Assembly: GCA_040389905.1 (NCBI GenBank)
Contig: JAZJZK010000043.1
Location: forward strand, 1-46,646
Reading direction: 5' to 3'
Source: Gemmatimonadota bacterium
GTDB taxonomy: Bacteria > Gemmatimonadota > Gemmatimonadetes > Gemmatimonadales > Gemmatimonadaceae
Length of the DNA stretch: 46,646 nucleotides
Both the position numbers and the translations under genes were made by a program. Shown one piece after another: positions 25,548 through 46,508 of the stretch (positions within the stretch are counted from its first letter, which is position 1; every line of letters begins with the position of its first letter). The notes below the pieces were generated by a model, which saw only the letters and a list, made by a program, of their open reading frames with translations, made no database searches and was not told the DNA's origin.

Positions 25548-26717
25548 TCACACCCCGAGGCTGAATATCGCGCGGTAGTTGCAGGCTGAGGCGTCCGTGT
25601 TGTCGATCTTGATCGACTGGGCGTCTCCTGGAATCGTCATGGGCGTCATCAGAGTTCCCTGGACGACAAGCTGCGCAGCGCAAACAAATCCCGCCGAGTC
25701 CAGTAAGCTGACCGTAAACTTACCCACGGTCGACAATGTCGAATACACAACAAGTGATTTCGAAAATTGTGGAATGGCCGCGCCACCGAAAGAGCCATTA
25801 CCGACCTGGTCGAGATACACAGTTCGCGTGATAGGCGTAGTTCGCAAAATCGCCCCGAACGAAATCTGTCCGTACAGCGTCACCAATGGAAACGAAGTGG
25901 GGGCAGTAGCATTCGGCAATGACGCCACGTTCGCCACCGCGAGGTCGATTGCGAACTGACTGCCCGACAAGGTCAGTTGGCAACCGAGTGGGCCGATATC
26001 GACCTCCATACTTTGAAGAAATCCGCGTGTACCAAATTTGATTCTAGCGTAGGGACGGATCGGCGCAGGACCGCCTGGACCTCCCGCTCGCTCGAAAAAA
26101 TTACCTTTCGATGCCGTAGTCCCCAGGGTGATAGTCCCCACAGACGTCTCAGCGTCTTTCCCTGCCCACTGAGCGACTGTCGCGAACGGATCATCCCCAG
26201 TCGCGGCAACTTGCAAAATAGCTACGTTACCAAGTGACCCATCGAGAACAGAAGGCGGGTTACTCCGTACAAATGGCGCGACAGCGTTCAGATCGGCGTG
26301 TTCGTTTTTTCCCTGCTCGACACGCGTGTAGAAATCATCACCGCCGGCTGCACGCGCAGCCTTGTCCTTGTCCATGAGGTACTTGTCGACCTCATCGATA
26401 TATCGACTGGGCTGAATCAGGTTGTCGATCTGTCCAAGCCCAACCCCTCCGTCGTCAATTATCATTCGCGGCACCGCACCGATGACCGGCGCCTGCTTAT
26501 GCATCGCTGCCATCTTGAGCGCGAAGTCGACCTCGCGATCGTCAAGAGCGCGTCCCAGCTTCATCTTCTCGCCAATGAGAGCGGCGATGGCTGCACGCGA
26601 GCGCACCTCGCGCTCCTCAGAGGACATCTGCGCGGCGGTGATCCGCGGCGATGTTTTATCGTCGGGCGGTGCAGAAAGCTCACCGAGAATATTCTTGAAC
26701 GGATCGTCGTCACTCAT
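25548..26717 (-). CDS. Putative virion structural protein with beta-rich C-terminal domain, paralog of 36823..37770
   Basis: Shared blocks: W.G.D.ET, RP[YF]A...[FW]G, E[VI]DIG, RT.Y[LI]D, P.F, end in [LS][GI]-like hydrophobic C-terminus. Confidence 0.6.
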   Translation of the reverse strand: MSDDDPFKNILGELSAPPDDKTSPRITAAQMSSEEREVRSRAAIAALIGEKMKLGRALDDREVDFALKMAAMHKQAPVIGAVPRMIIDDGGVGLGQIDNLIQPSRYIDEVDKYLMDKDKAARAAGGDDFYTRVEQGKNEHADLNAVAPFVRSNPPSVLDGSLGNVAILQVAATGDDPFATVAQWAGKDAETSVGTITLGTTASKGNFFERAGGPGGPAPIRPYARIKFGTRGFLQSMEVDIGPLGCQLTLSGSQFAIDLAVANVASLPNATAPTSFPLVTLYGQISFGAILRTTPITRTVYLDQVGNGSFGGAAIPQFSKSLVVYSTLSTVGKFTVSLLDSAGFVCAAQLVVQGTLMTPMTIPGDAQSIKIDNTDASACNYRAIFSLGV

Positions 26718-27127
26718 TTTTGCTCCTTCGCTTTCTCGTCGCGGGCTTTCTTCCACGCGTCGTTCTGCTTCTCGGCTGCTTCCCACGCTTCGATGTGTGG
26801 CAGCATCTGCGTTGCGTAACGCGCAAACGAGGGAGACCACTCGAACGTACCTATAACAGCGATGGCAACCACAAAGTCAGCGTCCTCTACACCGATCACG
26901 TCACCAGGTTTGCACCCCAGAAACACTTGCTCAATCTTTTGCTGCCGCCGCGCTCCGTTACCACCACCTTTGGACAGATTCGGGTGCACACACAGATTGT
27001 CGTAGACAAAATCCTCGTGTGTGATGACCCACGGGACAGCAGGACCGTCTTTCTCAAGTGAGACCTTCACTTCTTTTCCGCCGCGGTCCACAATATTTAC
27101 GTCAGCGGGCACGATGATATGTTTCAT
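26714..27127 (-). CDS. Hypothetical protein, possible spike-associated chaperone
   Basis: Directly downstream of the spike gene; coupled to the next gene. Confidence 0.6.
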   Translation of the reverse strand: MKHIIVPADVNIVDRGGKEVKVSLEKDGPAVPWVITHEDFVYDNLCVHPNLSKGGGNGARRQQKIEQVFLGCKPGDVIGVEDADFVVAIAVIGTFEWSPSFARYATQMLPHIEAWEAAEKQNDAWKKARDEKAKEQK

Positions 27128-27145
27128 TTTTCCAAATTTCCCCTG

Positions 27146-28534
27146 TTACGGTCCGAACACAGTATACGCACCTCCGTCGACAGACGCTTCAAAATGTTTC
27201 GAAGCAGCGATGTAGCGAATACGACCATGTCCGGCAGCGGAGACCGCTGCGTTTGAACCATCCGTCATGTCGATGAACGCCGCCGCTGCCACGCCGTAGA
27301 GCAAGAGCGCGCCGGCTTGATTCAGATCAGCAACCGGCGTCTCGTTGAATTGAAAACTGAAGTGCCCAGTAGGCGTCGTGCTGTCGACAATATGCTGAAT
27401 GTCAGCGTCATAACGCGTTGGCGAACCGCCGCTGAAATAACTGCCACGCCAGCGAATGCGCGGACTCGGTTGCGTCGGGTTACCGCCGGACGAATCAGTT
27501 CCAATCTGCAGAAAGTCCGCGAACCCTGCCATGAAGCCCGCGCCCCACTCCCAGACGGTGGTGCCGGCGGCTTTCAAGAACCCAGTGCCGCTACCAGAGT
27601 TATCGGCATCGACGTTGACCGTGAAGTTGGTGTTGCAACTTACGTCGACCTCACCGCTGGAGAGCACCGTGACTGCTGCCCCGCCCGAGTTCGCTTTGAT
27701 CCACGCCTGACTGTCGTCGACGTAGTGCGTATTCAACCCTGACGGCGAGTTCATTCCCGCGGTGGTCGGCGTGATGCCAACCGTGCCGCCACCACCGGGA
27801 CCAACGTTGATTGTCTCCGCGCTGATGAACAGCGTCGAGACATACGGCGCAATAAGACTGCTCAAACACGACCAGATGCGCGTAGCCACACCGTCAGGGT
27901 GCCAGAACACCTCGTGCCGCTCGGATTGACGCCCGTACGGAGCGCCCTCAAAGCTAGTCTCGAACTCGCTCGACCAGCCGCCAATATTGGTTCCCGTGAT
28001 GATGAGCCCTCCACCGGCAGCGACGTTCCAACCAAAGCGCGAAACTTGGTTTTTACGCGCCCAAGTGGCATTGTTGAATTGGCCAAACCAATGCACCCAC
28101 GGAACACTACCAGCTTCGGTCGGTTGAAAATTCAACCATTGGGTATCTGTCGCGTCCGACCCGGTAAGAGCAGGGCCGATGTTGAGCGTACCCTGACTTG
28201 AAACACCTAGAATAGATGTTCCGACGGCCATCGTGAGGTTCGTGGGTGAGAACGAGTAGAGATTCACACCTGCCGATGTCTGCAGTGCAAGCATCGTCCC
28301 GATCGGGGCAGCGTTGTCCTTAAGGATAACGGGACCGGCGGCTGCGTTAAGCAGCATCGTCGAGTCGGCCGCGGAGACCCCGGACGCGTAGGTCTGGGCG
28401 AGCGTTCCGCCACCACCTGGAGACAGACTGTCGAGCTTGATTTTGTCGGCAGCGCTCATGAAGCCAGCCATCGTGGTCGTCACGATGTTGGTGTCTACCC
28501 ACCCGGCGCCACCCTGGACGTAGAGCCTGCCCAT
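27146..28534 (-). CDS. Spike / receptor-binding fibre-like protein
   Basis: TTTMAGFMSAADKIKLDSL fibre-type motif; Gly/Ser/Thr-rich, beta-strand-rich body. Confidence 0.65.
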   Translation of the reverse strand: MGRLYVQGGAGWVDTNIVTTTMAGFMSAADKIKLDSLSPGGGGTLAQTYASGVSAADSTMLLNAAAGPVILKDNAAPIGTMLALQTSAGVNLYSFSPTNLTMAVGTSILGVSSQGTLNIGPALTGSDATDTQWLNFQPTEAGSVPWVHWFGQFNNATWARKNQVSRFGWNVAAGGGLIITGTNIGGWSSEFETSFEGAPYGRQSERHEVFWHPDGVATRIWSCLSSLIAPYVSTLFISAETINVGPGGGGTVGITPTTAGMNSPSGLNTHYVDDSQAWIKANSGGAAVTVLSSGEVDVSCNTNFTVNVDADNSGSGTGFLKAAGTTVWEWGAGFMAGFADFLQIGTDSSGGNPTQPSPRIRWRGSYFSGGSPTRYDADIQHIVDSTTPTGHFSFQFNETPVADLNQAGALLLYGVAAAAFIDMTDGSNAAVSAAGHGRIRYIAASKHFEASVDGGAYTVFGP

Positions 28535-28538
28535 CGGA

Positions 28539-29288
28539 CTATGCCTTCAGGCAGTCCAGTGGATCGATGATGTCTCGAAAAATTTCGCCGCCAACGATCG
28601 TGTCCTGCGAGCCGAAACCGAACGGTGCACCGACGGCATAGACCTTGTCGACGAAGGGGAACCACTTCGTCGGTGAGTGCTTGACCGCGTGCAGAATCTC
28701 ACTCTCGTGCGCGAGCGCATACGCCTCGAGCCTCGCCCACGTCCTCGCCTCACCGGCATCCTGCGCCATCGCGACGATCTTCTTGGTCGCGCCCGAGCCC
28801 ATCGTGTGTGCGAGCTTGACGAGGCGCCAAAAATACTCTGATCCCTTCGGCGCCACATCAAGCACGTTTACCAGTTTCATGTACTGGCCAATGAGCGCGA
28901 GGCCGCCGTTGATCGAATACGTCGCATCTGTCGACAACCGCTGATGGTCAAGTCCGAGCGACTTGGACTCCGACGGCATCAACTGAAATAATCCGCGCTC
29001 ATCGAGTTTGGTCACCTCGCCGAGTCTGCCTCCCGATTCCTTCGCGATCCAGCCGACGAGAACACCGAGCGGTACTTTCGACGAATCCGCCGCCTGCTTG
29101 AGCATGGGCAAGATTTTGTCGACGAGCTTGTACCCCGTGGACGTGGGGAACCCGACCGGCGGTGGTGCACTCGGCGGCAGATCGGGCTCGTGCACGGGCA
29201 CGGGCCTGTCCGTCGACGCGAGCGCAAGTGCAATCAGCACACCTGCGCCCGCACCGACGAAAATCACTAGCGGAATGAGGACAGGCAC
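28539..29288 (-). CDS. Membrane-anchored lytic transglycosylase (SLT domain)
   Basis: N-terminal TM, Pro-rich linker, WIAKESGG (catalytic E), GLFQLMP, SINGG; GTG start after GGGAGG. Confidence 0.88.
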   Translation of the reverse strand: MPVLIPLVIFVGAGAGVLIALALASTDRPVPVHEPDLPPSAPPPVGFPTSTGYKLVDKILPMLKQAADSSKVPLGVLVGWIAKESGGRLGEVTKLDERGLFQLMPSESKSLGLDHQRLSTDATYSINGGLALIGQYMKLVNVLDVAPKGSEYFWRLVKLAHTMGSGATKKIVAMAQDAGEARTWARLEAYALAHESEILHAVKHSPTKWFPFVDKVYAVGAPFGFGSQDTIVGGEIFRDIIDPLDCLKA

Positions 29289-29483: not shown

Positions 29484-30164
29484 CTATCTCTTCACGTGCG
29501 AATGCACGCCGAAGCCGAGACCTACTGCCAGCGACAAAATGATCGCTCCAGCACCCGCAATCCCCACCCACTTCAAAGTCGTGAGGAGACTCCCGACGCT
29601 CTTGGTCGCCTCGTCGAACTTCTTCTTGATGTCCGGTACCGCCTCCTCCATGTAGTGCGCGGGTGTGTCGAGCACGCGCCCTGAAAAATAATCGTTTTGC
29701 GACTGCGCGAAAACCGGCCCGCTGTAGACCTCGTCGAGCGGGTTGCGCTTCGTCACCTTCGCGATCTCACCGGCCAGCGCTTCGAGCTGTGCCTTGAACG
29801 TCGACGCAGTAATCGTCGGCGCCGTCTGATTGAGAATCTGCCCCGAGATCTGCCGCGCGTAATCCTCGAGCGACTGCTTCGACGACAGATGGGCGCCGAC
29901 GATGCACGCGTACGCTGAGTCTAGCAAGCCAAAGTCACGCGCCTTGCCCTGGCGATGAGCGAGCTCGTCCGCACCGAGCACGAGGGCGTCAATCTCAATC
30001 TCTTCATCGTCGTCATCTAAATCGTAGGCGTAGGAGGGTCCGCCCCACCAGGCGCCCCAGCCGCGCGGACCGCCACCACGGTGACCTCCACCGCCGTGGT
30101 GACCACCATGCCCGCCGCCACCGTGGCCGATGCAGACGTCAAGACCTCGCAAACAGCGTGTCAT
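29484..30164 (-). CDS. Putative virion membrane protein (C-terminal TM)
   Basis: N-terminal LRGLDVCIG, Gly/His-rich then acidic tract; C-terminal hydrophobic helix plus basic tail. Confidence 0.75.
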   Translation of the reverse strand: MTRCLRGLDVCIGHGGGGHGGHHGGGGHRGGGPRGWGAWWGGPSYAYDLDDDDEEIEIDALVLGADELAHRQGKARDFGLLDSAYACIVGAHLSSKQSLEDYARQISGQILNQTAPTITASTFKAQLEALAGEIAKVTKRNPLDEVYSGPVFAQSQNDYFSGRVLDTPAHYMEEAVPDIKKKFDEATKSVGSLLTTLKWVGIAGAGAIILSLAVGLGFGVHSHVKR

Positions 30165-30557
30165 TTATTTCCTCGCAACCAGGTAGACACCGCCGCCGAG
30201 TACCGCTGCGCCAATGAGGCCGCCTACCACCCACATCGTGGTCTTCTTCGAGTCGGCGGCGCGCTTTTCTTCTTGTTTGCGCATCGCCTCGGCCTGGACT
30301 TTGGCCGCCTCCACCGCCTTGGCGTCTGGAGAGCCTCCCGCACCGAAGCCCGAGGCGAACGCGCTCAGGTACGGCGTGACCTGGCTCATGTCCACGCCAA
30401 CGAGTTCGGTAACCGCCTCGGTGAAGCCGTCGAAGCGTTCAACGACGATGTCCGCGCTTGTGTCAAACTCATCATCATTGGCCGGCGCGTCGTCGCCAAT
30501 GCGGTGACAAGCCACTACGACATCGAAACCACGTTGCGCACGTTGATTGAGCGACAT
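30165..30557 (-). CDS. Putative virion membrane protein (C-terminal TM)
   Basis: RGFDVVV motif; ends MWVVGGLIGAAVLGGGVYLVARK. Confidence 0.75.
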   Translation of the reverse strand: MSLNQRAQRGFDVVVACHRIGDDAPANDDEFDTSADIVVERFDGFTEAVTELVGVDMSQVTPYLSAFASGFGAGGSPDAKAVEAAKVQAEAMRKQEEKRAADSKKTTMWVVGGLIGAAVLGGGVYLVARK

Positions 30558-30962
30558 TTACTTCCTCCGCAAAAATGTGATCAACAGCGACGACAGCGTA
30601 ATTGCTGCGCCTGCCCCCGCCGCTGCTTGCCAGCGCTTGACCGGCGCACCGGACCACGCGGGTTGAAACCACCACCCCACCGTCGCGTTCACCTTAGCGA
30701 TAGACGCGAGAGGAGCAAGTGACGAGGTTCGAATGAAGTACAGGCCGTCGTGCCCATTGACGGTGACCGGCGTGTACTGAACACCCTTCGTGTTCGGCAC
30801 CGACTTGCCTTGCGGCCACACGTTGGCACCCGGCTGCAGCGTGAACGCCGGGTCTTCGTCACCCACGTTGCCAGCGCTATTGTCGGCCGCCATCATGCTC
30901 GCGGCGAACACCGCGGTGTTGACTGACTTGACACGCAAGGTTGGCATTTCGACGCCGATCAT
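30558..30962 (-). CDS. Putative virion membrane protein (C-terminal TM), possible SH3-like core
   Basis: Ends QPAWSGAPVKRWQAAAGAGAAITLSSLLITFLRRK. Confidence 0.7.
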   Translation of the reverse strand: MIGVEMPTLRVKSVNTAVFAASMMAADNSAGNVGDEDPAFTLQPGANVWPQGKSVPNTKGVQYTPVTVNGHDGLYFIRTSSLAPLASIAKVNATVGWWFQPAWSGAPVKRWQAAAGAGAAITLSSLLITFLRRK

Positions 30963-32344
30963 CGTCTCCTCCGAAATACAGCCAGCAGCACCGACGACAC
31001 CGCGATGGCGGCACCGGCACCCACTCCGGCCTGCCAAATCTGCACGGGACTACCTGTCCACAGGGGCTTGTGGAAGTAATCGAGCCACGACGCCTTTGCC
31101 GTCGCTGTGGATGCCGTGGACGCGCTGGGGATAACCTGTGTGTTCGCACCGAGCACGCGCAGCCGCGGGCGGCCGAGAAGCTCACCTACGATGTCGGAGA
31201 AAATGTCGTCCTCGGGACGCTTCTTCTCACCCGTCTCGTCAACCTCGGAAGCGTCTTCGGCATCGGACTCGTCGGCAGATTCTTCAAACGAGCTCGTGTC
31301 GTCGGCAGATTCTTCGGCTTCTTCATACTCGTTGGTGTAGCTGCTATCGCCGGCATCTGAGGGAGCGCCTCCTTCACCGGTACCGCCGCCACCTTGTTCC
31401 CCACCGTCCTCATCTCCGCCGCCGCCCGTGTCTTCTCCACCGCCACCTTCGTCACCGCCGCCACCCCCACCGCCACCCCCACTGCTGCTGCCTCCGCCAG
31501 TAGCACCGCTATCAAGAGACGACGGAGGTGTAGAAGGCGCAGCAATTGCCGCGTGTACCTGTGCAAGCCAGGCGTTCGCATCGGCCTGGATTCCATTAAC
31601 AGTGGCGATAATCGAACTGTCCGTCGGATCGGCGGCAATGGCGTTCTGACACCGCTGCATAATCAGCTGACCCTGCTGCACGAGCGGCGGACTCACGGTG
31701 CTCAACTGATTTAAATCGATTGCCATCAGCGACGTCAGAATCTCCCCGGCGAGCGCTTGCGCGTCGACAACGAAACTGCTGACGAGATCCGCCATCATAT
31801 CGGTCGTGGCGGCACTAAAACTGAAATCGAGGCCCATAACCTCGCGCAGAATGCCGCTGATTTGATCGCCTTTAACGGTGGTCTTCGCCGCTGCTTTCGC
31901 CGCCTTAACCTTCTTCGCCGACGAGAGCGCCTTCTGCCCACTCGAAGCTAGCTTCGACGCCGCCTGCGGATAGCGCTTTGCAATCTTCCGGGACACCGCG
32001 AGGGCGCGGTTGCCGGCGCGCTGGAGCGCGTCCACGTCAGCACCCGGTGGGATCTTCAGCGCAGCAGGTTTCTTGGCCGCATCGGCAGCGGCCTTCTGCG
32101 CTACCGGCGAAACTTTCGACGCAGTCGGGGCAGCGGCCCTCTGCGCTACCGGCGACACTTTCGCTGCGGATGGTGTAGCTGCCTTCTGCGCAGTCGTCGT
32201 GGAGATGACCTTAGCCGCGGTGGGTGCGGGCGCAGCGGCCTTCTTCGCAGTCGACGACACGACCGGCGCCGCGGCAGCCGTGGCCGTTTTGGACACGAAC
32301 TTCACCGCACCGATGGCGTCCAGGCCGCGCAGGTCACGCGTCAT
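30959..32344 (-). CDS. Low-complexity putative virion membrane protein
   Basis: N-terminal LRGLDAIG; Ala/Lys-rich repeats (KVSPVAQ x2); poly-Gly and acidic linker; C-terminal TM plus RRRR. Confidence 0.8.
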   Translation of the reverse strand: MTRDLRGLDAIGAVKFVSKTATAAAAPVVSSTAKKAAAPAPTAAKVISTTTAQKAATPSAAKVSPVAQRAAAPTASKVSPVAQKAAADAAKKPAALKIPPGADVDALQRAGNRALAVSRKIAKRYPQAASKLASSGQKALSSAKKVKAAKAAAKTTVKGDQISGILREVMGLDFSFSAATTDMMADLVSSFVVDAQALAGEILTSLMAIDLNQLSTVSPPLVQQGQLIMQRCQNAIAADPTDSSIIATVNGIQADANAWLAQVHAAIAAPSTPPSSLDSGATGGGSSSGGGGGGGGGDEGGGGEDTGGGGDEDGGEQGGGGTGEGGAPSDAGDSSYTNEYEEAEESADDTSSFEESADESDAEDASEVDETGEKKRPEDDIFSDIVGELLGRPRLRVLGANTQVIPSASTASTATAKASWLDYFHKPLWTGSPVQIWQAGVGAGAAIAVSSVLLAVFRRRR

Positions 32345-32346
32345 TT

Positions 32347-32778
32347 TTACCGACCCTCTCCGTAATAATACCGCGCAGCACCGACGGCGAGAAAGCCGAT
32401 GACGAACCCGAGCGCCGAGTTCGTCTTCATCGCGGCCGAAGCAAACACGCCTGCGTGCGTCTGCGCCAGGTTCCAGACGGCTTCGTTGCGCGTCGCCGCG
32501 TTGAGTAGTGCTGGCGCGTTCGTGCCTATCGAGCAGCCGGAGATGGCGCCGAGAACCCAGTGCCCGTGCTTGGCGCCGATGATGCCACCAGCGACGAGGC
32601 CGGCGGCCGATCCGATGCCCCAGTCGATCGCGACTGGCTCCGAACGCGCATGCTGCGCCAGCGCCTGCGAGCCGAGCAACGTGCTCGAGTCGCCGACGAG
32701 CTTGTCCGCTCGCGCGAGGTTGCGCCGGTACCCGGTCACGCGGTTGGCGTGCTCGAGGTATTTCTCGAGGGTGGTCAC
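32347..32778 (-). CDS. Multi-pass Gly-rich membrane protein, paralog of 33434..33835
   Basis: GTG start overlaps the upstream stop; GHWVLGAI..SIG.NA vs GHPFLGFV..SLG.NA. Confidence 0.7.
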   Translation of the reverse strand: MTTLEKYLEHANRVTGYRRNLARADKLVGDSSTLLGSQALAQHARSEPVAIDWGIGSAAGLVAGGIIGAKHGHWVLGAISGCSIGTNAPALLNAATRNEAVWNLAQTHAGVFASAAMKTNSALGFVIGFLAVGAARYYYGEGR

Positions 32779-33422
32779 TTCTTCCTCATCGAGCGCATGA
32801 TGAGCGTGATTGCGGTGAGGCTGCCGACGCCGACCAAACCCCAACCCCAAACAGGGAGGCCGCCATGCACCGAGGTGATCCACGACCCTGAGCCGTGTTT
32901 GCCGCCGTGCTCGGCCTTCTCGACCGCGGCGGTCACCTCGGCGGTCGGTGGCGCACCACACGCGTCGGTGACCACCTTCCAGCCCTTGAACTTGGCCTGC
33001 TTTGCGATGTCCTTCGGCGACTTCGACGCATCCGAAGCTGCCGCCACGAGCGCGTCCTGCGCGGCCTTGCAGCGCTTGCCGATGCCGTCGCCCTGCAGCG
33101 AGGCGCCGGCTACGATGGCCACGGCCTTCTTCGAGTCGCGCATCACGCGCGACGCAGCCGTCGCGGTCGGGTCGATGGTGGCAAGCTCGAGGTTGGCCTC
33201 GGCGTTCGCCCACTCCTGGTCGGCTCCGATGGACTTCTGCACGGCGGACTCGGAGTCCTTCTTGGACTTGTCCGCGGCGTCGGCAGCCTGTTTTTGTTCG
33301 ATACCGGTCGCGGCCACGTTCGCCAAGCCCTTGACGAGCCCGCCGTAGTCGAACGCGCCGATGGGCGTGGACATCTCTTGGATCACGCTCTCACCGAGAA
33401 CAGCGTAATAGTCACGATTCAT
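32775..33422 (-). CDS. Putative virion membrane protein (helical, C-terminal TM)
   Basis: MNRDYYAVLGE...; ends GGLPVWGWGLVGVGSLTAITLIMRSMRKK; AAGGAG RBS. Confidence 0.75.
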   Translation of the reverse strand: MNRDYYAVLGESVIQEMSTPIGAFDYGGLVKGLANVAATGIEQKQAADAADKSKKDSESAVQKSIGADQEWANAEANLELATIDPTATAASRVMRDSKKAVAIVAGASLQGDGIGKRCKAAQDALVAAASDASKSPKDIAKQAKFKGWKVVTDACGAPPTAEVTAAVEKAEHGGKHGSGSWITSVHGGLPVWGWGLVGVGSLTAITLIMRSMRKK

Positions 33423-33433
33423 AGCGTTCTCCT

Positions 33434-33835
33434 TTACTTTCTCAACCCTAACACGAATACGTTTGCGTTGGAGCCCTTCACAAGCGACGTGGCGACGAGC
33501 CCGACCGCGAGTCCTGCAAGTCCACCCCAAAACGGATGCTGTTTCCACAGCAGCGAGCCGGCGACGATAGCCAGCGCCTGCCCCACGTTGCAGGCTGCGA
33601 TCGTTCGATCGTTACCTTGACCGCGCCACGTACGAAACGCGTTCTGGCCCAGTGATTCTGCCATCACGAAACCAAGAAACGGATGCCCGATCTTGAGCCC
33701 GTAGAGCGCGCCGGCCACGCCCGCGATGCCGCCAGGGAGCAGCGTCTTCGTGTACGGCAGGTTCCCCATCGCCGGGTCGGCGAGCGACGCCATGCCAGGC
33801 GAGATGGCACCGAGGAATGAAAGAGCGTGGCTCAT
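33434..33835 (-). CDS. Multi-pass Gly-rich membrane protein
   Basis: Several GxxxG hydrophobic segments; HPF[LW]G repeated twice. Confidence 0.75.
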   Translation of the reverse strand: MSHALSFLGAISPGMASLADPAMGNLPYTKTLLPGGIAGVAGALYGLKIGHPFLGFVMAESLGQNAFRTWRGQGNDRTIAACNVGQALAIVAGSLLWKQHPFWGGLAGLAVGLVATSLVKGSNANVFVLGLRK

Positions 33836-34032
33836 CTACGACCCTTCTTTCGCGCACGCTTGCGCGGCACGCCCGCCATCCGGTACGCGATGGCAATAGC
33901 TTGACGTTGTGGATATCCTTCACGCTTAATCAAAAAACGAATCTTGCGCGAAATCCACGCACGTTTTTTACGTGACAACTTCGCCTTGCGTTTCTTCGTC
34001 GCCTTGCGCTTGCGCGTTTTCTTTCGCGCCAT
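33832..34032 (-). CDS. Small Arg/Lys-rich nucleic-acid-binding protein
   Basis: MARKKTRKRK...GYPQRQAIAIAY...RKKGRR; coupled at both ends. Confidence 0.75.
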   Translation of the reverse strand: MARKKTRKRKATKKRKAKLSRKKRAWISRKIRFLIKREGYPQRQAIAIAYRMAGVPRKRARKKGRR

Positions 34033-34445
34033 CAACGCCCTCCTGCGAGCTTGACCGCACCGTACCCCAGCGCCGACAAGAGCACGCCGAAGAAGATACC
34101 GCCGGCCAAATCACTCGTAGGCTTCGAACCCTTCGGCGGCGTCTGCGTAATCTCGACGGTGATCTCCGAGCCCTTCTCCTTGAACTGCTTCTTTAGCTCG
34201 TCGGCGACCGTCGAGTAGATCGTGTTCTCGATAAACTCCGGCACGAGCATGCCCGTCGCCCACGCCACGCCCTCGCCCTTCTCCTTGGCGACGAGGCCGG
34301 CCGGGTCGTTGATGTGCATCGTCAAGTACGTCTTGCCTGCACCCGGCGCAGCACCGACGTCAACGATCAAGTCATCTGCACCCTGTCCTGGTTGTGCACT
34401 CGAACCGAGGAGAACGTCGAGACCTTTGCAGCACGCGGTTTTCAT
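34032..34445 (-). CDS. Putative virion membrane protein (C-terminal TM)
   Basis: N-terminal KGLDVLLG; C-terminal LAGGIFFGVLLSALGYGAVKL. Confidence 0.75.
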   Translation of the reverse strand: MKTACCKGLDVLLGSSAQPGQGADDLIVDVGAAPGAGKTYLTMHINDPAGLVAKEKGEGVAWATGMLVPEFIENTIYSTVADELKKQFKEKGSEITVEITQTPPKGSKPTSDLAGGIFFGVLLSALGYGAVKLAGGR

Positions 34446-34447
34446 TT

Positions 34448-37770: not shown

Positions 37771-39239
37771 TGGCTGACCGCCTGTTCTTTACCACCCTGG
37801 AACAGCACCAGCTTCGCATCCTTGACGACGACCTTCTTACCTCCAGTTTTCAGATTCAACGTCACCTGCGCGGGGGAGTCATAGCCAAAGCTGAACTTAT
37901 CTCCCGCGCCTCGCTTGTAGCCGTTGCCGTCGAAGCGCACACCACCGAGCACGCCGCACGCCGACACGGACGAGTTGAGGTACTCGTCATGGGTGCCGTT
38001 CACGTGGATGACGATCACGCTATCCGGCGACGCGACGATCACGATGTTCGACTGCGGCGCCTTCGGGGCCGGAGGAGGCGGCATGAATACGCCGGGCTTT
38101 ACGTCCGCGGTGCCGCCCGCCCAACCTGGCAGAGCGGGCGCCTCGAGCTGCGTCAGCTGATCGCCGAGCGCGCCCGCACCGAACGCGTGCAGGAGAATGT
38201 TGCCCCCCGTGTGCGCGCCGCCGAAGAAGTTCACGCCGAACTCGCGCGCATCCATGCCGACGACCTGCGCCTTGCGCTTCTGCGCGCTCGTGAGTCGCAC
38301 GCCGGCATCCTTGACGAGGCCGCGCCACGAGGACGCAAGCTTGAGCGCCTCGCGACACGCCTGCTTGTCGCCTTGCTGACAGCGCTGGAGGAGCGCCATC
38401 ATCGCCGCCATGTCGGGATCGGCCTGCGGAACAACGAGTCCGACGAACGGCTCGCGTGCCTGCGCAAACACGGGTGCGGCGGCGCAGATTTCGCTGAACA
38501 GCTTTCTCCCGGCGACCTTCGGCGCGAGGTTGGCGCCAACGAGCAGCGCCTCGTCGCCGACGCAGCCGACGACCTCCGCGCAGCCGACGACCTCCTCGAA
38601 GGTGTCGTCGAGCGGCGCGCCCGTCGTCGCGATGCCGTACGGCGTCCGCGCGCTCACGAGCACTTCGTCGCCGTCGGTCCAACACTCGACTTTGCCGCGC
38701 ATCGACGACGGCAGCCCGAGGTCCACCGGCTTGCCGCCGCGCGCTGCCTCGGTGACGACGCCGATGACCGCCTGCTCGTGCTCGTCTGAACCGCCGCCGT
38801 CGAGGTGGCGCTCGAACTCCTCGACGTCCATATTGTGGCCGCCGTGGTGGTCCGAGATGTGCCCCTCGAAGGCGCGCTCGAGGCGCCCCAAACGCGCGTC
38901 GAGGTCAGCGAGGTACGGCTGCCGACGAAGGTCGCGAAATTCGGCGTAGGACTCTTCGCCGTCGAGGCGCACGAGCTTCGGGCGGCCGATGGCGGAGCGG
39001 AACATCTTGCGCAGGCGATCGTACAGTGGGTAGTGCCCGTCGATGATGGTGGAAGCCGCGCCGACGACGTGCTCGGCTGGCTCGAACGTCCACGCGGTGG
39101 GGTCGAAGCCGACAAGCTCGACCCGCACGGGCACACGAAAACGGCGACGGCGAAGCACGCGCAGCGTCTCGCCCATCATGTCGATGATGTCGACCGACTC
39201 GGCGCCGAGGACGTCGTCGAATGCCTCGCGGGCGTTCAT
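37767..39239 (-). CDS. Putative virion/morphogenesis protein with many phi-phi-G motifs
   Basis: ATG in TAATG overlap; DDVLG, ELVG, HVVG, AVIG, EEVVGCAEVVGCVG, QVVG. Confidence 0.75.
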   Translation of the reverse strand: MNAREAFDDVLGAESVDIIDMMGETLRVLRRRRFRVPVRVELVGFDPTAWTFEPAEHVVGAASTIIDGHYPLYDRLRKMFRSAIGRPKLVRLDGEESYAEFRDLRRQPYLADLDARLGRLERAFEGHISDHHGGHNMDVEEFERHLDGGGSDEHEQAVIGVVTEAARGGKPVDLGLPSSMRGKVECWTDGDEVLVSARTPYGIATTGAPLDDTFEEVVGCAEVVGCVGDEALLVGANLAPKVAGRKLFSEICAAAPVFAQAREPFVGLVVPQADPDMAAMMALLQRCQQGDKQACREALKLASSWRGLVKDAGVRLTSAQKRKAQVVGMDAREFGVNFFGGAHTGGNILLHAFGAGALGDQLTQLEAPALPGWAGGTADVKPGVFMPPPPAPKAPQSNIVIVASPDSVIVIHVNGTHDEYLNSSVSACGVLGGVRFDGNGYKRGAGDKFSFGYDSPAQVTLNLKTGGKKVVVKDAKLVLFQGGKEQAVSQ

Positions 39240-39859
39240 TAGAAGACACCATTCGCGTTGCGGAAAAGCTCGAGGGTGGCTTCGAACCGGTTCTCCGGAT
39301 CGCTCCACTTCTCGAGCGCGGCGCGACCGCCACGGTGTAAAATCGCCAGGGCGCCCGACATACTTACGTCATCGGGTCTTTCGAAATCAGGTCGCAGCGC
39401 GCATTCGTCATAGTGCTCAGCTTCTTTCAACAGCTTGTAGTAGGCTCGGCAGCTCGCCACAAACACCTTGTACTGCGCGTTCGCACTCTTCAGGAACAGG
39501 TCGCGCGTGAGCGGTGGCACCCAGTCCGCCACCTGCACCGAGCGGTTGGTGATCGGATCGCGCTTGTAGCGCAGGTTCTCAACGAGCTTGAGGTCGGCCA
39601 GGCGCTTGTAGCGGATGTCGAACATGCCGAGGCCGTTCGACGGCGACACCGCGTCCAGCGGCGCGACCTTCATCGCGAACACGAAACTGGTCCACGCGGC
39701 GTTCGAGACGTTCGGCAGCTCGCTCTTGAGCACGCGCTCGTCGGCGCGGAATGGGCGCAGAGCCGGGGCGGTGCTCGCCGCCTCGGGTGGAGCGAAGCCG
39801 ATGGTCTCGCTCGCGGGCTCGGGCTTGCGCGCGTCGACGATGAAGGGGAATTTGCTCAC
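39239..39859 (-). CDS. Lysozyme-like fold protein, probably degenerate
   Basis: NGLGMFDI...LADL...FLKSANAQYKVF...SGALAILHRGG echoes G.YQF...FL..P..Q...SG.LA.AH..G; catalytic ES not seen. Confidence 0.5.
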   Translation of the reverse strand: MSKFPFIVDARKPEPASETIGFAPPEAASTAPALRPFRADERVLKSELPNVSNAAWTSFVFAMKVAPLDAVSPSNGLGMFDIRYKRLADLKLVENLRYKRDPITNRSVQVADWVPPLTRDLFLKSANAQYKVFVASCRAYYKLLKEAEHYDECALRPDFERPDDVSMSGALAILHRGGRAALEKWSDPENRFEATLELFRNANGVF

Positions 39860-40569
39860 GCGACCCTCTTTTTATTGCTGAGGAGATCGCTCACCGCGGC
39901 GTCGAGCGATGCGCCATCGAACGAGGACGTCATCGACTTCAATGCCGGGCGCAATGCCGCACGCCCGTACTTGCGAAGGATGTCGCAGCGCTCCTGGTTC
40001 TTTTGAATTTCGATCATGCGGTCGGCAGCGCGCTCCGGCTGGTACATGCCAAGCAACAAGGAGGGGTCCTCGCTCGTTTCGTAGTTGCACGGGCCGAGCG
40101 GCGGCCACAGCACGAGCGCGTGGTAGGTGGTACCGCCGCCGGGGCGCTCGCGACTTGTCATGAACGGGCGCGCTGGGATTCCTGCTTGACGAAGCTCGGC
40201 GACGCGCCAGCAGGCGAGGCCGTCACAATCGATCTCGCCGAGCTCGAGGATCACGCCGATATCGCAAAAGTGCTCGCCGCCCATCACGTCCTGAATTTTC
40301 TCGAGGACGCGGCGTACGTCGCCCTTGCGCGCGGCGGCGCCGAGGGCTTCCTTCAGGATCTTCACCTCGTCGATGTCACCGGTCAGCTGCTTCGGCTTCG
40401 CCCAGTTCACACCGGACTTGTAGAGGCGCGGGGTGGAGGGGCGCTCGCTGAGGTAGTCCTGATTCCTTTGGACAAGGGCCTCCATGAACCAAATCAAATC
40501 TTTTTCGGTTTTTAGCCGACTGTCGCCGTCGGAGAAGCAGGTTAGCTCACACCAAATATGCCGCAACAT
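39856..40569 (-). CDS. Transglutaminase-like (papain-fold) Cys-His-Asp enzyme
   Basis: IDCDGLACWRVAEL (Cys), YHALVLW (His), EDPSLLLGM (Asp). Confidence 0.8.
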   Translation of the reverse strand: MLRHIWCELTCFSDGDSRLKTEKDLIWFMEALVQRNQDYLSERPSTPRLYKSGVNWAKPKQLTGDIDEVKILKEALGAAARKGDVRRVLEKIQDVMGGEHFCDIGVILELGEIDCDGLACWRVAELRQAGIPARPFMTSRERPGGGTTYHALVLWPPLGPCNYETSEDPSLLLGMYQPERAADRMIEIQKNQERCDILRKYGRAALRPALKSMTSSFDGASLDAAVSDLLSNKKRVA

Positions 40570-40590: not shown

Positions 40591-40627
40591 AAAAACGCCG
40601 CACCGATTAACGAAAGTCGGTGCGGCG
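40591..40627 (-). terminator. Intrinsic terminator downstream of the candidate capsid gene
   Basis: Perfect 11-bp stem CGCCGCACCGA/TCGGTGCGGCG followed by T5 on the minus strand. Confidence 0.8.
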
Positions 40628-40662: not shown

Positions 40663-41223
40663 TCAGTAGGCCGCCTTACCCCACAATTGACCAAAAAAGG
40701 TCGACGTGGTGATGAAGCTCACCGTGAACGCGATCGACAGCGCCGGCTGGCAGGTGTCCCACTTCACGCCGTTACCGAGCGCGTTGTTCGCGAAGAACAA
40801 GGTCAGCGCGCCGTTCGAGGTCGCCGGGCGCTGAAGCTTGTTGCCGATGATGACCTGGGTGATCGACGTGTTGAAGCCGGCGCCCTGGGGGCCGACGTCG
40901 GTCGCCATGATCTTCTCGACGCGGAACAGCGTCTGCGGCTGGATGGTGATGGTGGTCGTGGTGCCCGCGGTGCCCGACACCGGGCCGAGGGGGAAATCCC
41001 AGTCGCGGGCCTTGTCGACCGTCGACCGACGAACCATCGGACGCGCGTTCGCGATGCGCGCCTGGACGAACTGCGCCATCTGGGGCGAGCGCTGCACCAT
41101 CTCACCGAGGAGCTGGTACGCGCCTTCCGCGCCCAGCACCGAGAGGTCGGCGCCACCGCCACGAACCTGCTCACCGACGAGATCGTCCCACTCCGTACCT
41201 GCACCGATCAATGGATTACTCAT
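40663..41223 (-). CDS. Candidate major capsid protein (single jelly-roll-sized beta protein)
   Basis: 186 aa; N-terminal arm with four phi-phi-G motifs, then about 8 predicted beta strands (TTTITIQPQ..FRVEKI..SITQVIIG..SIAFTV..FFGQLWG); strongly GC3-biased codons; own terminator. Confidence 0.55.
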   Translation of the reverse strand: MSNPLIGAGTEWDDLVGEQVRGGGADLSVLGAEGAYQLLGEMVQRSPQMAQFVQARIANARPMVRRSTVDKARDWDFPLGPVSGTAGTTTTITIQPQTLFRVEKIMATDVGPQGAGFNTSITQVIIGNKLQRPATSNGALTLFFANNALGNGVKWDTCQPALSIAFTVSFITTSTFFGQLWGKAAY

Positions 41224-41430
41224 TTGCTTGTCTCCCTTGTTGCCGTCTGGGTACGCCAGGCCCGAACATTCGGACCTGACTGCGTTGCCGACTTGCGCGC
41301 GGCGCAGAACTCGCACCACCTCCGCTCACTGCCGGCTTGCTGCACCCTTGGGGCTCGGACTCGCCCGGCCTTTCGGGATCAGGGGCTACGGCGCGACTTC
41401 CGCCGGCCGTAGCCGAACTTCAAACCGCGA

Positions 41431-41883
41431 TTACCGCGGTCCCGTGTTGTTCGCCATCTCCTCGGCCGTCAAAAAGGGGCCGTCCGCACGCGGCGGAATC
41501 ACACCCACGACCTGCTGCGGGGACTTCTTGCCGGCGACTCCCTTGGGCGCGGCGTGCGCCACCGAGCGATTCGCCTTGTCCGAGCCCCACGACGCGCCGA
41601 CCGCGTACATGTACGTGGTCATGCCGACGTCACCTGCGCGCTCGAGGTGCTTGTTGCCGCCGAGCAGCGCCGAGCCGATGTAGCCGGCCACGCCGACGAT
41701 CGCCTCGATGCCGACGCCGTGAAAAACGGCCTTGTCGTAGTAGTAGCCCTTGATGGCGCCGAGGGCCGCCGCCATGACCGCGCGCTCGCCCTTGTCCATG
41801 ATGAAGGGCATGAGGCCCGACCCGGCCGCGAGACCCGTAGGAAGGTTGCGCGGGACCGCCTTGATCATGCTCAAAATCTTCAT
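41431..41883 (-). CDS. Putative virion membrane protein, first gene of structural operon
   Basis: AAGGAG RBS; Gly-rich hydrophobic segments; QQVVG motif. Confidence 0.7.
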   Translation of the reverse strand: MKILSMIKAVPRNLPTGLAAGSGLMPFIMDKGERAVMAAALGAIKGYYYDKAVFHGVGIEAIVGVAGYIGSALLGGNKHLERAGDVGMTTYMYAVGASWGSDKANRSVAHAAPKGVAGKKSPQQVVGVIPPRADGPFLTAEEMANNTGPR

Positions 41884-42109: not shown

Positions 42110-42775
42110 ATGGGTGAAATCGCGAGAATTGTGGCCGAACTGCCCGTTTCTCTACATCGACGTGTCAAGAGAATCTCGAAACTCACGCACAAATCGATGT
42201 CCGATATCATTCGCGACGCGCTCAAGGGGGAGGTCAACGCCTTCGAGACCAAAGAGCGCGAGGAAGAGGCGCGCGTAGCTGAGACGAAGAGAAAGCCGTC
42301 GGGGATCGTCCCCCTCGAGCAGCGCCCCGCGATCGAGATGCCTGCCGTCGCCGCGCTCGACAGACTCGCTCCCGTGTTCGAGAAGCACGCGCTGAGGATC
42401 GCGGCGGCGTACGACAAGCCTGAAGAGCTCGCCGTGCTGCAGCGCGAAGCCTTTGCCGCGATCAAGAAGATGGCGCCTCTCACCTACGCCGACGACGAGA
42501 AGATCATCGCGCGGTTGGACGCGCTGATCGCGGAGAGGGCGGCGATGGAGGCGGAAGCGGAGACGGTGGAGCAGCCCGCGGTGCGCGGAATACGGTCGAT
42601 GCCTGCGGTTGCGGCTGCACCCGCGGAGGCTTCGCTCCCCGAGGTGTTCGGGTTGCTGAAGAACATGTTCGCTGGGTCGAAGATTGCGGAGGAGGATCCG
42701 CTCGAGGGGAAGGCGATCAATCTGATGAGGCTGGCGAAACAGTCTGTTGTTGAAGACGGAGAAGATGAAGGTTGA
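42110..42775 (+). CDS. N-terminal RHH DNA-binding protein
   Basis: RIVAELPVSLHRRVKRIS...SMSDIIRDAL fits the RHH pattern. Confidence 0.7.
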   Translation: MGEIARIVAELPVSLHRRVKRISKLTHKSMSDIIRDALKGEVNAFETKEREEEARVAETKRKPSGIVPLEQRPAIEMPAVAALDRLAPVFEKHALRIAAAYDKPEELAVLQREAFAAIKKMAPLTYADDEKIIARLDALIAERAAMEAEAETVEQPAVRGIRSMPAVAAAPAEASLPEVFGLLKNMFAGSKIAEEDPLEGKAINLMRLAKQSVVEDGEDEG

Positions 42776-42808: not shown

Positions 42809-42964
42809 ATGGCCAACATTACAATTTACGTAGCCCCCGCTCTCGCAGCTGAGCTCGAGCAGTTGCGAGAGCGGCTCAAGTCGAAACGCTCCTCCCTCTC
42901 ACGCTGGTTCGACGAACAGGTCCGCGAAGCGGGTAGACCGCGCATGACGGGAAAGAAAAAATGA
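42809..42964 (+). CDS. 51-aa RHH-like protein (not in ORF track)
   Basis: MANITIYVAPALAAELEQL...SLSRWFDEQV; stop overlaps the helicase ATG; TTGACA at 42772 and palindrome TGCACGTGCA upstream. Confidence 0.65.
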   Translation: MANITIYVAPALAAELEQLRERLKSKRSSLSRWFDEQVREAGRPRMTGKKK

Positions 42965-44898
42965 AACTTCACGACTATCAAAAAGAAGCGATCGAAGTCG
43001 CTTGGAACACGCTACAGCGCAAATCCAGTGCTCAGGTCGTACTTCCCACCGGCAGTGGGAAAACGCTCGTCTTCGTCAAGCTGGCCGATCGCTGGTTTGA
43101 GAAGAACAAGAGTCGTGTACTAATAGTTGCACACACACGAGAGTTAGTTCGCAACGCACATCGCAGGGTTCTACAGCACACACGTCTCACTTGTGACATC
43201 GAGATGGCGGAACACCGAGCCAACGGCGCTCCTGTGGTCTGCGCCTCGGTACAGAGCATGGCTGCGCGCCTGAAGAGGTACAAACGCAACAGCTTTGGTC
43301 TAGTAATCTTCGATGAAGCTGATCTTGCGGCAGCGCCGAGCTACGACAAAATTCGTCGTCACTTCAACAAAGCAAAAATGTACGGAACCACCGCCACACC
43401 GGATCGCCACGACGGCAAAAAATCCATCGCTCCGGTGGTGTACGAGAAGTCCCTTCGCGAACAAATCGAGTCTGGGCACCTCACAAGAATTCGACGCATC
43501 GCTGTCAAGACTGCGGAGGTCTCCCGCGCCAAGCTGCTCGGCGGTGACTTCGACAAAATGTGGCTCGACGAAATCTTCTCGCGCGAGAGACACCTCCACG
43601 AAGTCGTTCGCCCACTACTAGACCAAGCCGGCAAACGCCCCACGCTCGTGTTCGGTGTTTCCGTTCTGCATTCCAAGCTACTAGCCAACCTCTTCAACAA
43701 GTACCGGCCTGGCTGCGCTCGGTGGGTGTCCGGCAAGACTACAGATCTTGAAGCGACGCTCGAAGCATTCAAACGCGGCGAGTTCCAGTTCTTGTGCAAC
43801 TGCGTTCTCATCTCGCGCGGCGTCGACCTACCGCTCGTGTCCTGCATCGGTATGGCTCGACCCACGCTCAGCCATACACTCTACAAGCAGATGCTCGGGC
43901 GCGGCACGCGTCTCTCGAAAGAGACCGGCAAGAAGGATTTGCTGGTCGTCGACTTCACTTTCAATTCGGACGTGCACTCGCTTGATGTCGTCGACGCTGT
44001 AGTCGGTGAGGGACAAGAAGAGGTAGGGGCTCGTGCTCGAGAAGTAGCGCCTAAGAATGAATTTGATATTGTCGACCTTATCAGCGAAGTCGAAGGTGAG
44101 CTAGAGACGAACGCGAAGCTACGAAAACGCATTCAAGCGAAGGTGAGGTACGAGCTTCGACGCGTTGTAGGAATAGACTGGTCGGTCGTCACGGAGAAAA
44201 TGTGGCGGACTATGTCAGATCACAAAATCGCAATAACACTAAACTGTGATAGCAAAGGAGTAAACAAACATAGACCACAACACATTCCGTCACCAGGATT
44301 GTATAAAACAATAGATTTATCTTCAGTAACTAAAAATATGTGGCTAACTATGACAAACAAGCAGCTAGCCTCAAGATTTAATTATAATGTTGCCAGAGTA
44401 AGAGAAAAACGACCTGAAAACATTCCTTCCCCCGGTCGTCGCAATATTTCTCTGTTGTCAATAACTGACAACATGTGGCGCACTATGACTGATAAAGAAC
44501 TAGCAAGGAAATTCAACTGTAGTGATGTGCCAATAAGAAGTCGCAGACCTAAACATATTACATCGCCAGGTGTCTTAGACACTGAAAAAACAATAGCAAA
44601 AATCACTGAAAATATGTGGCGAACCATGACTAATTATCAAATCTCAAACAAGTTAAAAATTACCCGTAGAGCTGTCGCTAAACGTCGACCTGTGGCTATC
44701 CCGTCCCCTGGGAGTAACGATCAGCGACGTATAGATTTTTCTTCGGTTACAAATAAAATGTGGCGGACCATGACAGATTCTGAAATAGCACAAAATTTAA
44801 AATGTGATAGAGCATCGGCTACTGCTCACAGACCGTCGAATATCATATCAGTTGGAAGCCCTCGTGGACGACGTAAATTGCCCAAACCCTTATTATAG
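42961..44898 (+). CDS. Superfamily 2 helicase (ResIII/UvsW-like) with C-terminal tandem HTH-like repeats
   Basis: LHDYQ (Q motif), LPTGSGKT, IFDEAD, TATPDR, RGVD, QMLGRGTR. Confidence 0.92.
   Translation: MKLHDYQKEAIEVAWNTLQRKSSAQVVLPTGSGKTLVFVKLADRWFEKNKSRVLIVAHTRELVRNAHRRVLQHTRLTCDIEMAEHRANGAPVVCASVQSMAARLKRYKRNSFGLVIFDEADLAAAPSYDKIRRHFNKAKMYGTTATPDRHDGKKSIAPVVYEKSLREQIESGHLTRIRRIAVKTAEVSRAKLLGGDFDKMWLDEIFSRERHLHEVVRPLLDQAGKRPTLVFGVSVLHSKLLANLFNKYRPGCARWVSGKTTDLEATLEAFKRGEFQFLCNCVLISRGVDLPLVSCIGMARPTLSHTLYKQMLGRGTRLSKETGKKDLLVVDFTFNSDVHSLDVVDAVVGEGQEEVGARAREVAPKNEFDIVDLISEVEGELETNAKLRKRIQAKVRYELRRVVGIDWSVVTEKMWRTMSDHKIAITLNCDSKGVNKHRPQHIPSPGLYKTIDLSSVTKNMWLTMTNKQLASRFNYNVARVREKRPENIPSPGRRNISLLSITDNMWRTMTDKELARKFNCSDVPIRSRRPKHITSPGVLDTEKTIAKITENMWRTMTNYQISNKLKITRRAVAKRRPVAIPSPGSNDQRRIDFSSVTNKMWRTMTDSEIAQNLKCDRASATAHRPSNIISVGSPRGRRKLPKPLL
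44173..44870 (+). repeat. Five ~45-47-aa AT-rich tandem repeats in the helicase C-terminus
   Basis: Consensus ID.S.[VI]T..MWRTM[TS][DN]..[IL]A...N........RP..IPSPG. Confidence 0.9.
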
Positions 44899-45477: not shown

Positions 45478-45576
45478 CAATCCGTCGTAGTCCGCCCCCA
45501 CCGTTTGCTCAATACGCAGCTTTTAACCCCTCCAATAGCCAATCCGTCGCGGTAAACGCCCAAGAATTGCCGATCC

Positions 45577-45605
45577 TTGCATTCCTCAGCATTCCGCTGT
45601 AGGCT
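45577..45605 (+). promoter_or_regulatory. Candidate promoter for basic-protein genes
   Basis: TTGCAT-17-TAGGCT; GGAGG RBS before ATG 45649. Confidence 0.4.
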
Positions 45606-45648
45606 AGATTCCAACATCGCGCCGAGTGCGCGAATTGGAGGCCGCACA

Positions 45649-46152
45649 ATGGCACGTCGCAAAAAGAAGGGGCACCGCCGCGGTAAACGCCGCATGTCGC
45701 GCAAGCAGCGCGCCGCTGCGCTCCGCAACCTGAAGAAGGCGCGCCGCGCCCGCAAGGGCAAGCGCCGGGGCAAGCGCAAGGGTCGCAAGGGCGGTCACAA
45801 GCGTCATCGGTCGGCCGCGCAGAAGCGCGCCGCGCTCCGCAACCTGAGGAAAGCTCGCCGCGCCCGCAAAGGCAAGCGTCGGGGCAAGAGACACGGCAAA
45901 CGCCGTGCAAAACGTCACTCGAAGCGACGCGGGCGCAAGGGCAAGCGCCGGCATTCGCGGCGTAACCGGGTCGGCAAGCATATGAAGTCGGCCTACTCCG
46001 CCAACCCGTACGCCGGCATGCACAAGGGGCGCGAAGAGCGCGTCAAGCGTGAAGAAGCCGCTGCAATCCATCGCGCTGGGTATTTGGCCTCGCTCCGCGC
46101 CAAGATGGCCGCCCGTCGCCAGGCTGGCGGTTTCGCCGGGTCGAGCGTCTAA
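45649..46152 (+). CDS. Protamine/histone-like Arg/Lys-rich protein
   Basis: MARRKKKGHRRGKRR...; roughly half R/K; internal repeat [KA]Q.[AR]AALRNL[KR]KARRARKGKRRGKR x2. Confidence 0.85.
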   Translation: MARRKKKGHRRGKRRMSRKQRAAALRNLKKARRARKGKRRGKRKGRKGGHKRHRSAAQKRAALRNLRKARRARKGKRRGKRHGKRRAKRHSKRRGRKGKRRHSRRNRVGKHMKSAYSANPYAGMHKGREERVKREEAAAIHRAGYLASLRAKMAARRQAGGFAGSSV

Positions 46153-46158
46153 ACCGAA

Positions 46159-46344
46159 ATGGCTCGTCGACGTCTGAAGACTCGCAGATCGAAGCGACCA
46201 AAGCGGCGCGCGGTCTCAGTGCGCACTCGTCTCAGACGAGCCAGACGCCGCATCAAAGAACTGCTCGTCGAAGGTCAGATGCGTGGTGTGCGTGAAGAGC
46301 GTGCCTACGTGAAACGGCTCAAAACCCAAAACAAAAAGAGGTAA
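46159..46344 (+). CDS. Small Arg-rich basic protein
   Basis: MARRRLKTRRSKRPKRR...; G.REER motif also present in the upstream protein. Confidence 0.7.
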   Translation: MARRRLKTRRSKRPKRRAVSVRTRLRRARRRIKELLVEGQMRGVREERAYVKRLKTQNKKR

Positions 46345-46349
46345 CACAC

Positions 46350-46508
46350 ATGGCTCGTAGAAAAAAAGGTCACCGCAAGGGTCGCAAGCGTCGTATGTCC
46401 GCGAAGCAGCGTGCAGCGTGTCTTCGCAATTTGAAGAAGGCGCGCTCCGCTCGTCGTAAGGGGCGCAAAGGCAAGCGCAAGGGGCGCCGTCGGTCGAAGC
46501 GTCGCTAA
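46350..46508 (+). CDS. 52-aa protamine-like protein, paralog of the 45649 N-terminus (not in ORF track)
   Basis: MARRKKGHRKGRKRRMSAKQRAACLRNLKKARSARRKGRKGKRKGRRRSKRR; GAGG RBS. Confidence 0.8.
   Translation: MARRKKGHRKGRKRRMSAKQRAACLRNLKKARSARRKGRKGKRKGRRRSKRR

Follow-up and report, generated by a model that had tools for sequence, protein, structure and literature searches.

The 46,646-nucleotide contig JAZJZK010000043.1 (C43) of the Gemmatimonadota assembly GCA_040389905.1, which over its full length is the window analysed here, most likely carries the virion gene block of an undescribed and widespread group of large bacterial viruses, of which no particle has been seen. That the DNA is viral is almost certain, and a tailless particle with a jelly-roll shell is very likely. 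The block is an operon of 20 minus-strand genes running from 41883 down to 25548 (16,336 bp, gene starts refined from ribosome-binding sites), in agreement with the roughly 16 kb given in a preliminary description of this DNA. Neighbouring genes mostly overlap or nearly touch; 16 of the 19 intergenic gaps measure 18 nt or less, and the other three 207, 93 and 201 nt. A metagenome scan yielded 58 related loci on contigs of up to 72 kb, and homologues occur on contigs of up to 120 kb (relatives 52-120 kb), the whole family comprising 718 protein clusters. Locus counts given below are over 59 loci, L001 included, many of which are only 1-6 kb long, and the relatives were viewed with 10-kb flanks. 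Gene order is the same in the long loci mapped.

Central to the proposal is the 186-residue product of 40663..41223 (minus strand), probably the major capsid protein. It had been noted as a beta-rich protein whose gene has its own terminator; it has 87 homologues, and its predicted fold is a single jelly roll. The model consists of a disordered N-arm with repeated copies of a Gly-ending tag (see below), two helices (residues 35-60) and a beta-sandwich (73-185). In the fold search a chain of SPV1 gives the longest alignment of low root-mean-square deviation among the top rows, and chains of HHIV-2, HCIV-1 and P23-77 are also among the rows listed. The gene is the first large one after the membrane gene that opens the operon, its GC content at third codon positions is 0.87, and across five close loci the protein is 53-88% identical, versus 34-52% for the product of 36823 (see below). 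Extra jelly-roll paralogues are found in 10 of 30 loci, as two or three copies, while the other 20 have one in view; the paralogues include forms with a long acidic N-arm and tandem two-domain forms. In four homologues (P0204, P0207, P0213 and P0230) the capsid-candidate domain occurs in two tandem copies, which are natural duplications. L002 has, within its early genes, a lone 124-residue copy of the domain situated 6 kb away from the capsid gene (L002:3579-3953, E 3e-11), and the homologue P0039 carries the source label Vicinamibacterales.

The capsid gene is followed on its strand by a terminator-like element at 40591..40627, a hairpin (40596-40627) with a U run (-23.4 kcal/mol, z -3.5, 0 of 200 shuffles). 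It is preceded by a non-coding leader, 41224..41430, with a YGAG-tetraloop hairpin at 41356-41367 and an imperfect one near 41304-41316. Such hairpins, with varied stems, are found in 24 of 30 leaders of the close group and in 1 of 12 of the distant group. The close-group leaders contain 36 of them, whereas shuffled sequences give 2.4 +- 1.5 and the reverse strand 3. The loop was first spotted in an alignment of 15 of the leaders counted, but CGAG and TGAG come first in an unbiased count as well. The bias towards one strand suggests that the element acts as RNA, probably in translational control, and a search of the leader in Rfam returned no match. Tandem YGAG hairpins upstream of the capsid gene are conserved in leaders of L002-L044, a candidate new cis-regulatory RNA. 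On the other side of the capsid gene, the gap before the following gene (39856) often holds opposite-strand inserts, nuclease-, transposase- or tRNA-like by eye (L006, L023, L027, L034, L046, L048 and L053), and appears to be an insertion hot spot.

Two further operon products are proposed as vertex or turret proteins. The gene at 36823..37770 (minus strand) encodes 315 residues, an acidic N-arm followed by two tandem jelly rolls (95-315), predicted as two 8-strand sandwiches within 221 residues. Its paralogue at 25548..26717 (minus strand; 389 residues, 25% identity) is assigned the same two domains from the alignment. Homologues of the two occur in 11 of the 59 loci. The top fold match of 36823 is the HFTV1 turret, and its matches include penton as well as turret chains. 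Could 36823 itself be the major capsid protein, as a double jelly roll? In favour of this are the tandem sandwiches, whole-chain alignments to PRD1 P3 (183 residues) and to the phiCjT23 capsid protein (172 residues), and the size of the phiCjT23 double jelly roll, which has just 239 residues (PMC9719478). We nevertheless regard this as improbable, and keep 40663 as the capsid candidate. The fold matches of 40663 and of 36823 both include Ena chains, which, together with the many membrane and basic proteins, could indicate a particle that is enveloped or pleomorphic, or else a mobile element's non-virion appendage built of Ena-like jelly-roll fibres; such an origin is very improbable given the penton and turret matches of 36823 and the primase-helicase, ribonucleotide reductase (RNR), integrase and endolysin-type genes of the relatives.

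An internal membrane is suggested by membrane-type segments in ten operon genes (28539, 29484, 30165, 30558, 30959, 32347, 32775, 33434, 34032 and 41431), called from hydropathy or long uncharged runs rather than with a dedicated predictor, a number that matches the earlier estimate of about ten. The first gene of the operon, 41431..41883 (minus strand), encodes a Gly-rich protein of 150 residues with such uncharged runs, the proposed major membrane protein; homologues are present in 30 of the 59 loci, upstream of the jelly-roll gene where mapped. Eight small or medium-sized membrane-type proteins, recognised by hydropathy and composition, are encoded within 29484..34445 (minus strand; 34032, 33434, 32775, 32347, 30959, 30558, 30165 and 29484), and that of 30959 weakly matches an 'attachment protein' family in PHROGs (E 0.0044). 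The tenth, 28539..29288 (minus strand), is the membrane-anchored lytic transglycosylase (SLT) that had been noticed before: it matches PF01464 over the Pfam cut-off (E 1.6e-5), its N-terminal hydrophobic anchor (hydropathy 2.68) and catalytic E-S can be read in the sequence, and its PHROGs matches are tail-labelled transglycosylase families. Next to it, 27146..28534 (minus strand) encodes a Gly/Thr-rich protein of 462 residues, possibly a spike or fibre, with a weak match to phrog_6907 (E 0.0038) over residues 13-38 and a short similarity to L056. Four basic proteins (40-58% Lys plus Arg) lie in or beside the operon. One is inside it (33832-34032, minus strand, 46%); the other three, encoded on the plus strand at 45649-46152, 46159-46344 and 46350-46508, are protamine-like in composition (40-58%) and are proposed as DNA-condensing core proteins. 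Protamine-like genes are found also in L002, L010/L011, L013, L017, L019, L021, L022 and L027.

The preliminary description reported no terminase, portal, HK97-fold or tail motifs. Family searches agree with it: 58 window proteins searched in Pfam, 43 in PHROGs and 20 in NCBIfam gave no match to any terminase, portal, HK97, tail-tube, tape-measure or FtsK/HerA/A32 family, and Terminase_6N was not found anywhere in the bin. The relatives were scanned in PHROGs with 127 of the 234 called genes of at least 110 residues in 12 long loci plus one from L050, those set aside being for the most part basic proteins, antisense frames, the first copies of the capsid gene and genes covered by the Pfam scan; no terminase, portal or major capsid family was found among these 128 proteins. 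One of them matched phrog_240 'head protein' (E 1e-13) and another phrog_788 'tail protein' (E 2.8e-4), while two matched endolysin families. Among thirty locus genes searched in Pfam are VapE primase-helicases and RadA-like ATPases, as well as RNR, an integrase and a DNA methylase. These data bear on the possibility of a tailed phage in which the head and terminase module would be encoded on the missing part of the genome, the operon then encoding ejected core proteins, fibres and decoration proteins. Several observations would fit it: the atlas labels read Uroviricota, a KP1 baseplate chain takes the top row for 40663 by 0.2 Z, the HFTV1 turret is the top match of 36823, phrog_240 and phrog_788 are matched in relatives, and tailed phages often show large contigs and genes for integrase, RNR and lysis. 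Set against these are the lack of terminase, portal and HK97 families in the 58 window and 128 locus proteins, ten membrane proteins in one virion operon, and four tblastn queries that found no match in 50,697 phage records. A tailed phage is quite improbable.

Whether DNA is packaged by a motor is less clear, and a particle with no dedicated motor is favoured by a modest margin. A six-frame scan of the window returned seven Walker A strings, none of them in a plausible ATPase; motif I of the helicase at 42961 was read directly. The helicase had been described as holding the only Walker A of the window; a second Walker-A-like string exists in the 137-residue membrane protein of 34032-34445, and we judge it to be chance since it is not conserved in the 4 homologues found. 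Across the 59 loci, Walker A strings fall in RadA-like ATPases, a VapE helicase or chance positions. FtsK-type genes were found neither in the window nor among the scanned locus genes, in data that include no complete genome. A RadA-like ATPase gene is present in 11 of the 13 loci with at least 6 kb upstream (L010 and L011 overlap); the window has none, and it would be expected past the open end. On this evidence the absence of a motor is likely, though unproven. The same tailless jelly-roll virus could instead be motor-packaged in the manner of Singelaviria (SH1, P23-77), either by an FtsK/A32 ATPase encoded over 10 kb away from the capsid gene or by the RadA-like protein. The incomplete window, the 10-kb flanks, the frequency of the RadA-like gene and the 10 of 30 loci with two or three copies of the jelly-roll gene leave room for this, and in sphaerolipoviruses two capsid proteins are accompanied by an ATPase (PMC5332951). 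It is unlikely, however, in view of the failure to match FtsK-type families, the 20 of 30 loci with one jelly-roll gene in view, and the RadA-like gene itself, which L022 and L049 lack in the vicinity of the module and which matches host RadA, suggesting recombination or replication. RRM-like and Fis-like helix-turn-helix (HTH) genes, recognised by eye, lie near it (L010:4575-5264, L056:7982-8341 and L002:3011-3340).

The gene following the capsid gene, 39856..40569 (minus strand), encodes a putative Cys enzyme present in 30 of the 59 loci. C115, H150 and D168 are invariant in 10 of 10 members, and their Cys-His-Asp order places the protein, by sequence, in the transglutaminase-like superfamily; Transglut_core (PF01841) is matched by 5 of the 10 members (best E 0.0013) and Peptidase_C93 (PF06035) by 2, all under the Pfam cut-off. 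Intein-like insertions directly before the catalytic Cys in three relatives (L017:12968-14854, L019:10744-12594 and L022:10803-12014) suggest an essential active site; a literature search turned up no case of an intein-like insertion at such a Cys.

We find that proteins of the operon are enriched in the tag [DE][IVL][LIVM]G, picked by eye while seeking a shared motif. The 20 operon proteins contain it 15 times versus 2.5 +- 1.7 in shuffles (0 of 300 reach 15), and the 38 other window proteins 5 times versus 3.6 expected. In 12 loci it occurs 122 times versus 14.7 expected, and 16 versus 11.4 in the upstream genes there; it is present in 22 of 37 protein families (25.5 versus 3.5 with one protein per family), and in 505 host open reading frames the ratio of observed to expected is 0.96. 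Ten of the 20 operon proteins have a looser form within their first 30 residues, versus 4 of 38 others. A wider pattern gave a similar result, and with G[LFV]D[IVA] the enrichment was marginal. The enrichment is real. That the Cys enzyme is a maturation protease acting at the tag is a tentative proposal, to which we give slightly less than even weight, with cleavage as its hypothetical step; a sorting or assembly tag, or cross-linking by 39856, would fit too. Adenovirus protease cleaves after Gly motifs, and the likeness to adenoviruses and polintons extends to a morphogenesis block that includes a virus-encoded Cys enzyme and to the sharing of a Gly-ending motif by many virion proteins. Their enzyme, however, is Ulp1, whereas the one here is transglutaminase-like (BTLCP/LapG-type matches), in a bacterial virus, with cleavage as a proposal only. 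Polintons carry the vUlp1 protease (PMC11161782).

How might these components form a particle? The 186-residue protein, made in bulk through its structured leader and own terminator, would build an icosahedral shell, with 36823 and 25548 at the vertices or turrets and 27146 as the spike. The ten membrane proteins would form an internal lipid vesicle, and the anchored SLT and the spike would serve entry, the SLT opening the cell wall. The protamine-like proteins would condense the DNA, around which shell and membrane would co-assemble as in SPV1, without an FtsK motor, and the Cys enzyme may cut virion proteins at or near the tag, removing acidic N-arms in maturation. For all these steps jointly we see the case as evenly balanced: gene content, two folds as models, gene order, the triad and the tag enrichment are directly established, and from them we infer every role. 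The first suggestion, a tailless internal-membrane virus with a single jelly-roll capsid, is supported in part.

A shell of this kind over a membrane has a precedent in SPV1 (PMC8459092, PMC8812541). In Portogloboviridae (Sulfolobus polyhedral virus 1, SPV1; PDB 6oj0) VP4 hexamers and VP10 pentamers of single jelly-roll proteins enclose an internal membrane and a coiled nucleoprotein core, with which the ten membrane-type and four basic proteins are consistent, judged from genes alone. Identity to SPV1 is 7%, however; that family has circular dsDNA of about 20 kb against more than 47 kb here, and infects Saccharolobus (Sulfolobales) non-lytically, whereas this virus appears bacterial, with lysis genes in relatives and with an SLT, integrase, Cys enzyme and two-jelly-roll proteins besides. 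Singelaviria/Helvetiavirae (Thermus phage P23-77, SH1, HHIV-2 and HCIV-1) have two single jelly-roll capsid proteins and an FtsK-HerA ATPase (compared through PMC12714852, PMC8812541, PMC10848233, PMC5332951 and 10.1101/2025.02.15.638363); here one such capsid protein is encoded in the window, with two or three paralogues in 10 of 30 loci, and the ATPase is found neither in the window nor in the 10-kb flanks of genomes that are incomplete. The archaeal members treated in PMC5332951 have genomes of 16-31 kb. From Tectiviridae (PRD1, PR772) and phiCjT23 the virus differs in its larger genome, with no protein-primed polymerase or packaging ATPase found and no convincing double jelly-roll match. 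The family is not described in the literature searched, which includes PMC11161782, PMC6356626, PMC9719478, PMC9894754 and PMC5099504.

In the literature consulted, prokaryotic dsDNA viruses with a single jelly roll form a small group, mainly of extreme habitats, whose genomes span 16-31 kb; SPV1, which has no motor, has been proposed as ancestor-like (PMC8812541, PMC5332951). The family described here, of 718 clusters and with far larger genomes, would extend the SPV1 design to ordinary bacteria. It had no matches in the standard phage libraries or in the IMG/VR marker scans run here, and would thereby reveal a blind spot in virus detection. The one, two or three paralogues and tandem fusions bear on capsid gene duplication and fusion, and with the enzyme and its candidate tag, maturation by a protease could be tested directly in a tailless bacterial virus using two small proteins. 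The broadest claim, a widespread and unclassified bacterial dsDNA lineage of about 50-120 kb that unites single jelly-roll shell, membrane, protamine-condensed DNA, motor-less packaging and a transglutaminase-fold protease acting on the Gly tag, an SPV1-like architecture with adenovirus-style maturation and possibly a new high-rank group beside Singelaviria, is doubtful as a whole.

The contig is an incomplete virus genome, and bin membership alone does not establish its host. It has a guanine-plus-cytosine (GC) content of 0.599, in a bin of 5.08 Mb and 66 contigs with GC about 0.63, and its tetranucleotide profile is the second most deviant among bin contigs above 8 kb. C43 has no terminal repeat, and comparison with the other contigs of the bin gave neither a DNA match nor a shared 22-mer. 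In the single run that holds the contig, read cover is continuous at a depth of 11-19, and one assembled piece reaches 615 nt beyond position 46646, so that the genome continues past the right end, consistent with the minimum of 46 kb first stated. None of 40 related genomes yielded the capsid candidate, and none of 400 from the phylum the Cys enzyme. The RecA of the bin (L061:1276-2361) may be Gemmatimonadota-like. Ribosome-binding sites, overlapping genes, the SLT and endolysin-type genes in L044 and L051 argue for a prokaryotic host, and the peptidoglycan-directed SLT and endolysin-type genes point to a bacterium. The most deviant profile of the bin (r 0.926) belongs to contig C47 (8,841 nt), which has no match to virus genes of this family.

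The remaining operon products include a 206-residue protein conserved in alignment (39239..39859, minus strand; 21 of 59 loci) with lysozyme/SLT-like motifs, judged by eye, that lack the catalytic Glu, and no Pfam or PHROG match; a likewise conserved, Gly-tag-rich protein of 490 residues (37767..39239, minus strand; 16 of 59 loci); and a 787-residue protein with low-complexity and Gln-rich parts and many Gly tags (34448..36811, minus strand; homologues in 5 of 59 loci), proposed as an internal or DNA-delivery protein. Divergent from the operon, 42110..42775 (plus strand; 15 of 59 loci) encodes a ribbon-helix-helix regulator (RHH_1, E 0.0077, under the Pfam cut-off). It is followed by an SF2 (ResIII/RadD-like) helicase (42961..44898, plus strand; ResIII E 3e-24) with five C-terminal repeats of about 46 residues; lower GC, with the repeats in a low-GC tail, and presence in 0 of 59 loci mark it as probably a recent insertion.

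Outside the virion block, the left 25 kb encodes a tyrosine integrase (4460..5329, minus strand; Pfam E 3.7e-21; another is in L038), an HNH-type nuclease found in the Pfam/PHROGs scans, and a sugar-modification cluster of about 17 kb (5822..22749, minus strand), assigned by Pfam to glycosyltransferases, an epimerase, an aminotransferase, a nucleotidyltransferase and methyltransferases, which probably decorates the particle or DNA. The cluster includes two paralogues without a Pfam match (5822-6763 and 13259-14311), and a homologue of its gene 19891 adjoins a jelly-roll gene in L036. Between cluster and operon, a 377-residue coiled-coil-like protein (23879-25012) and a small HTH-like one (25320-25547) have homologues encoded upstream of the capsid gene in L050 and L059.

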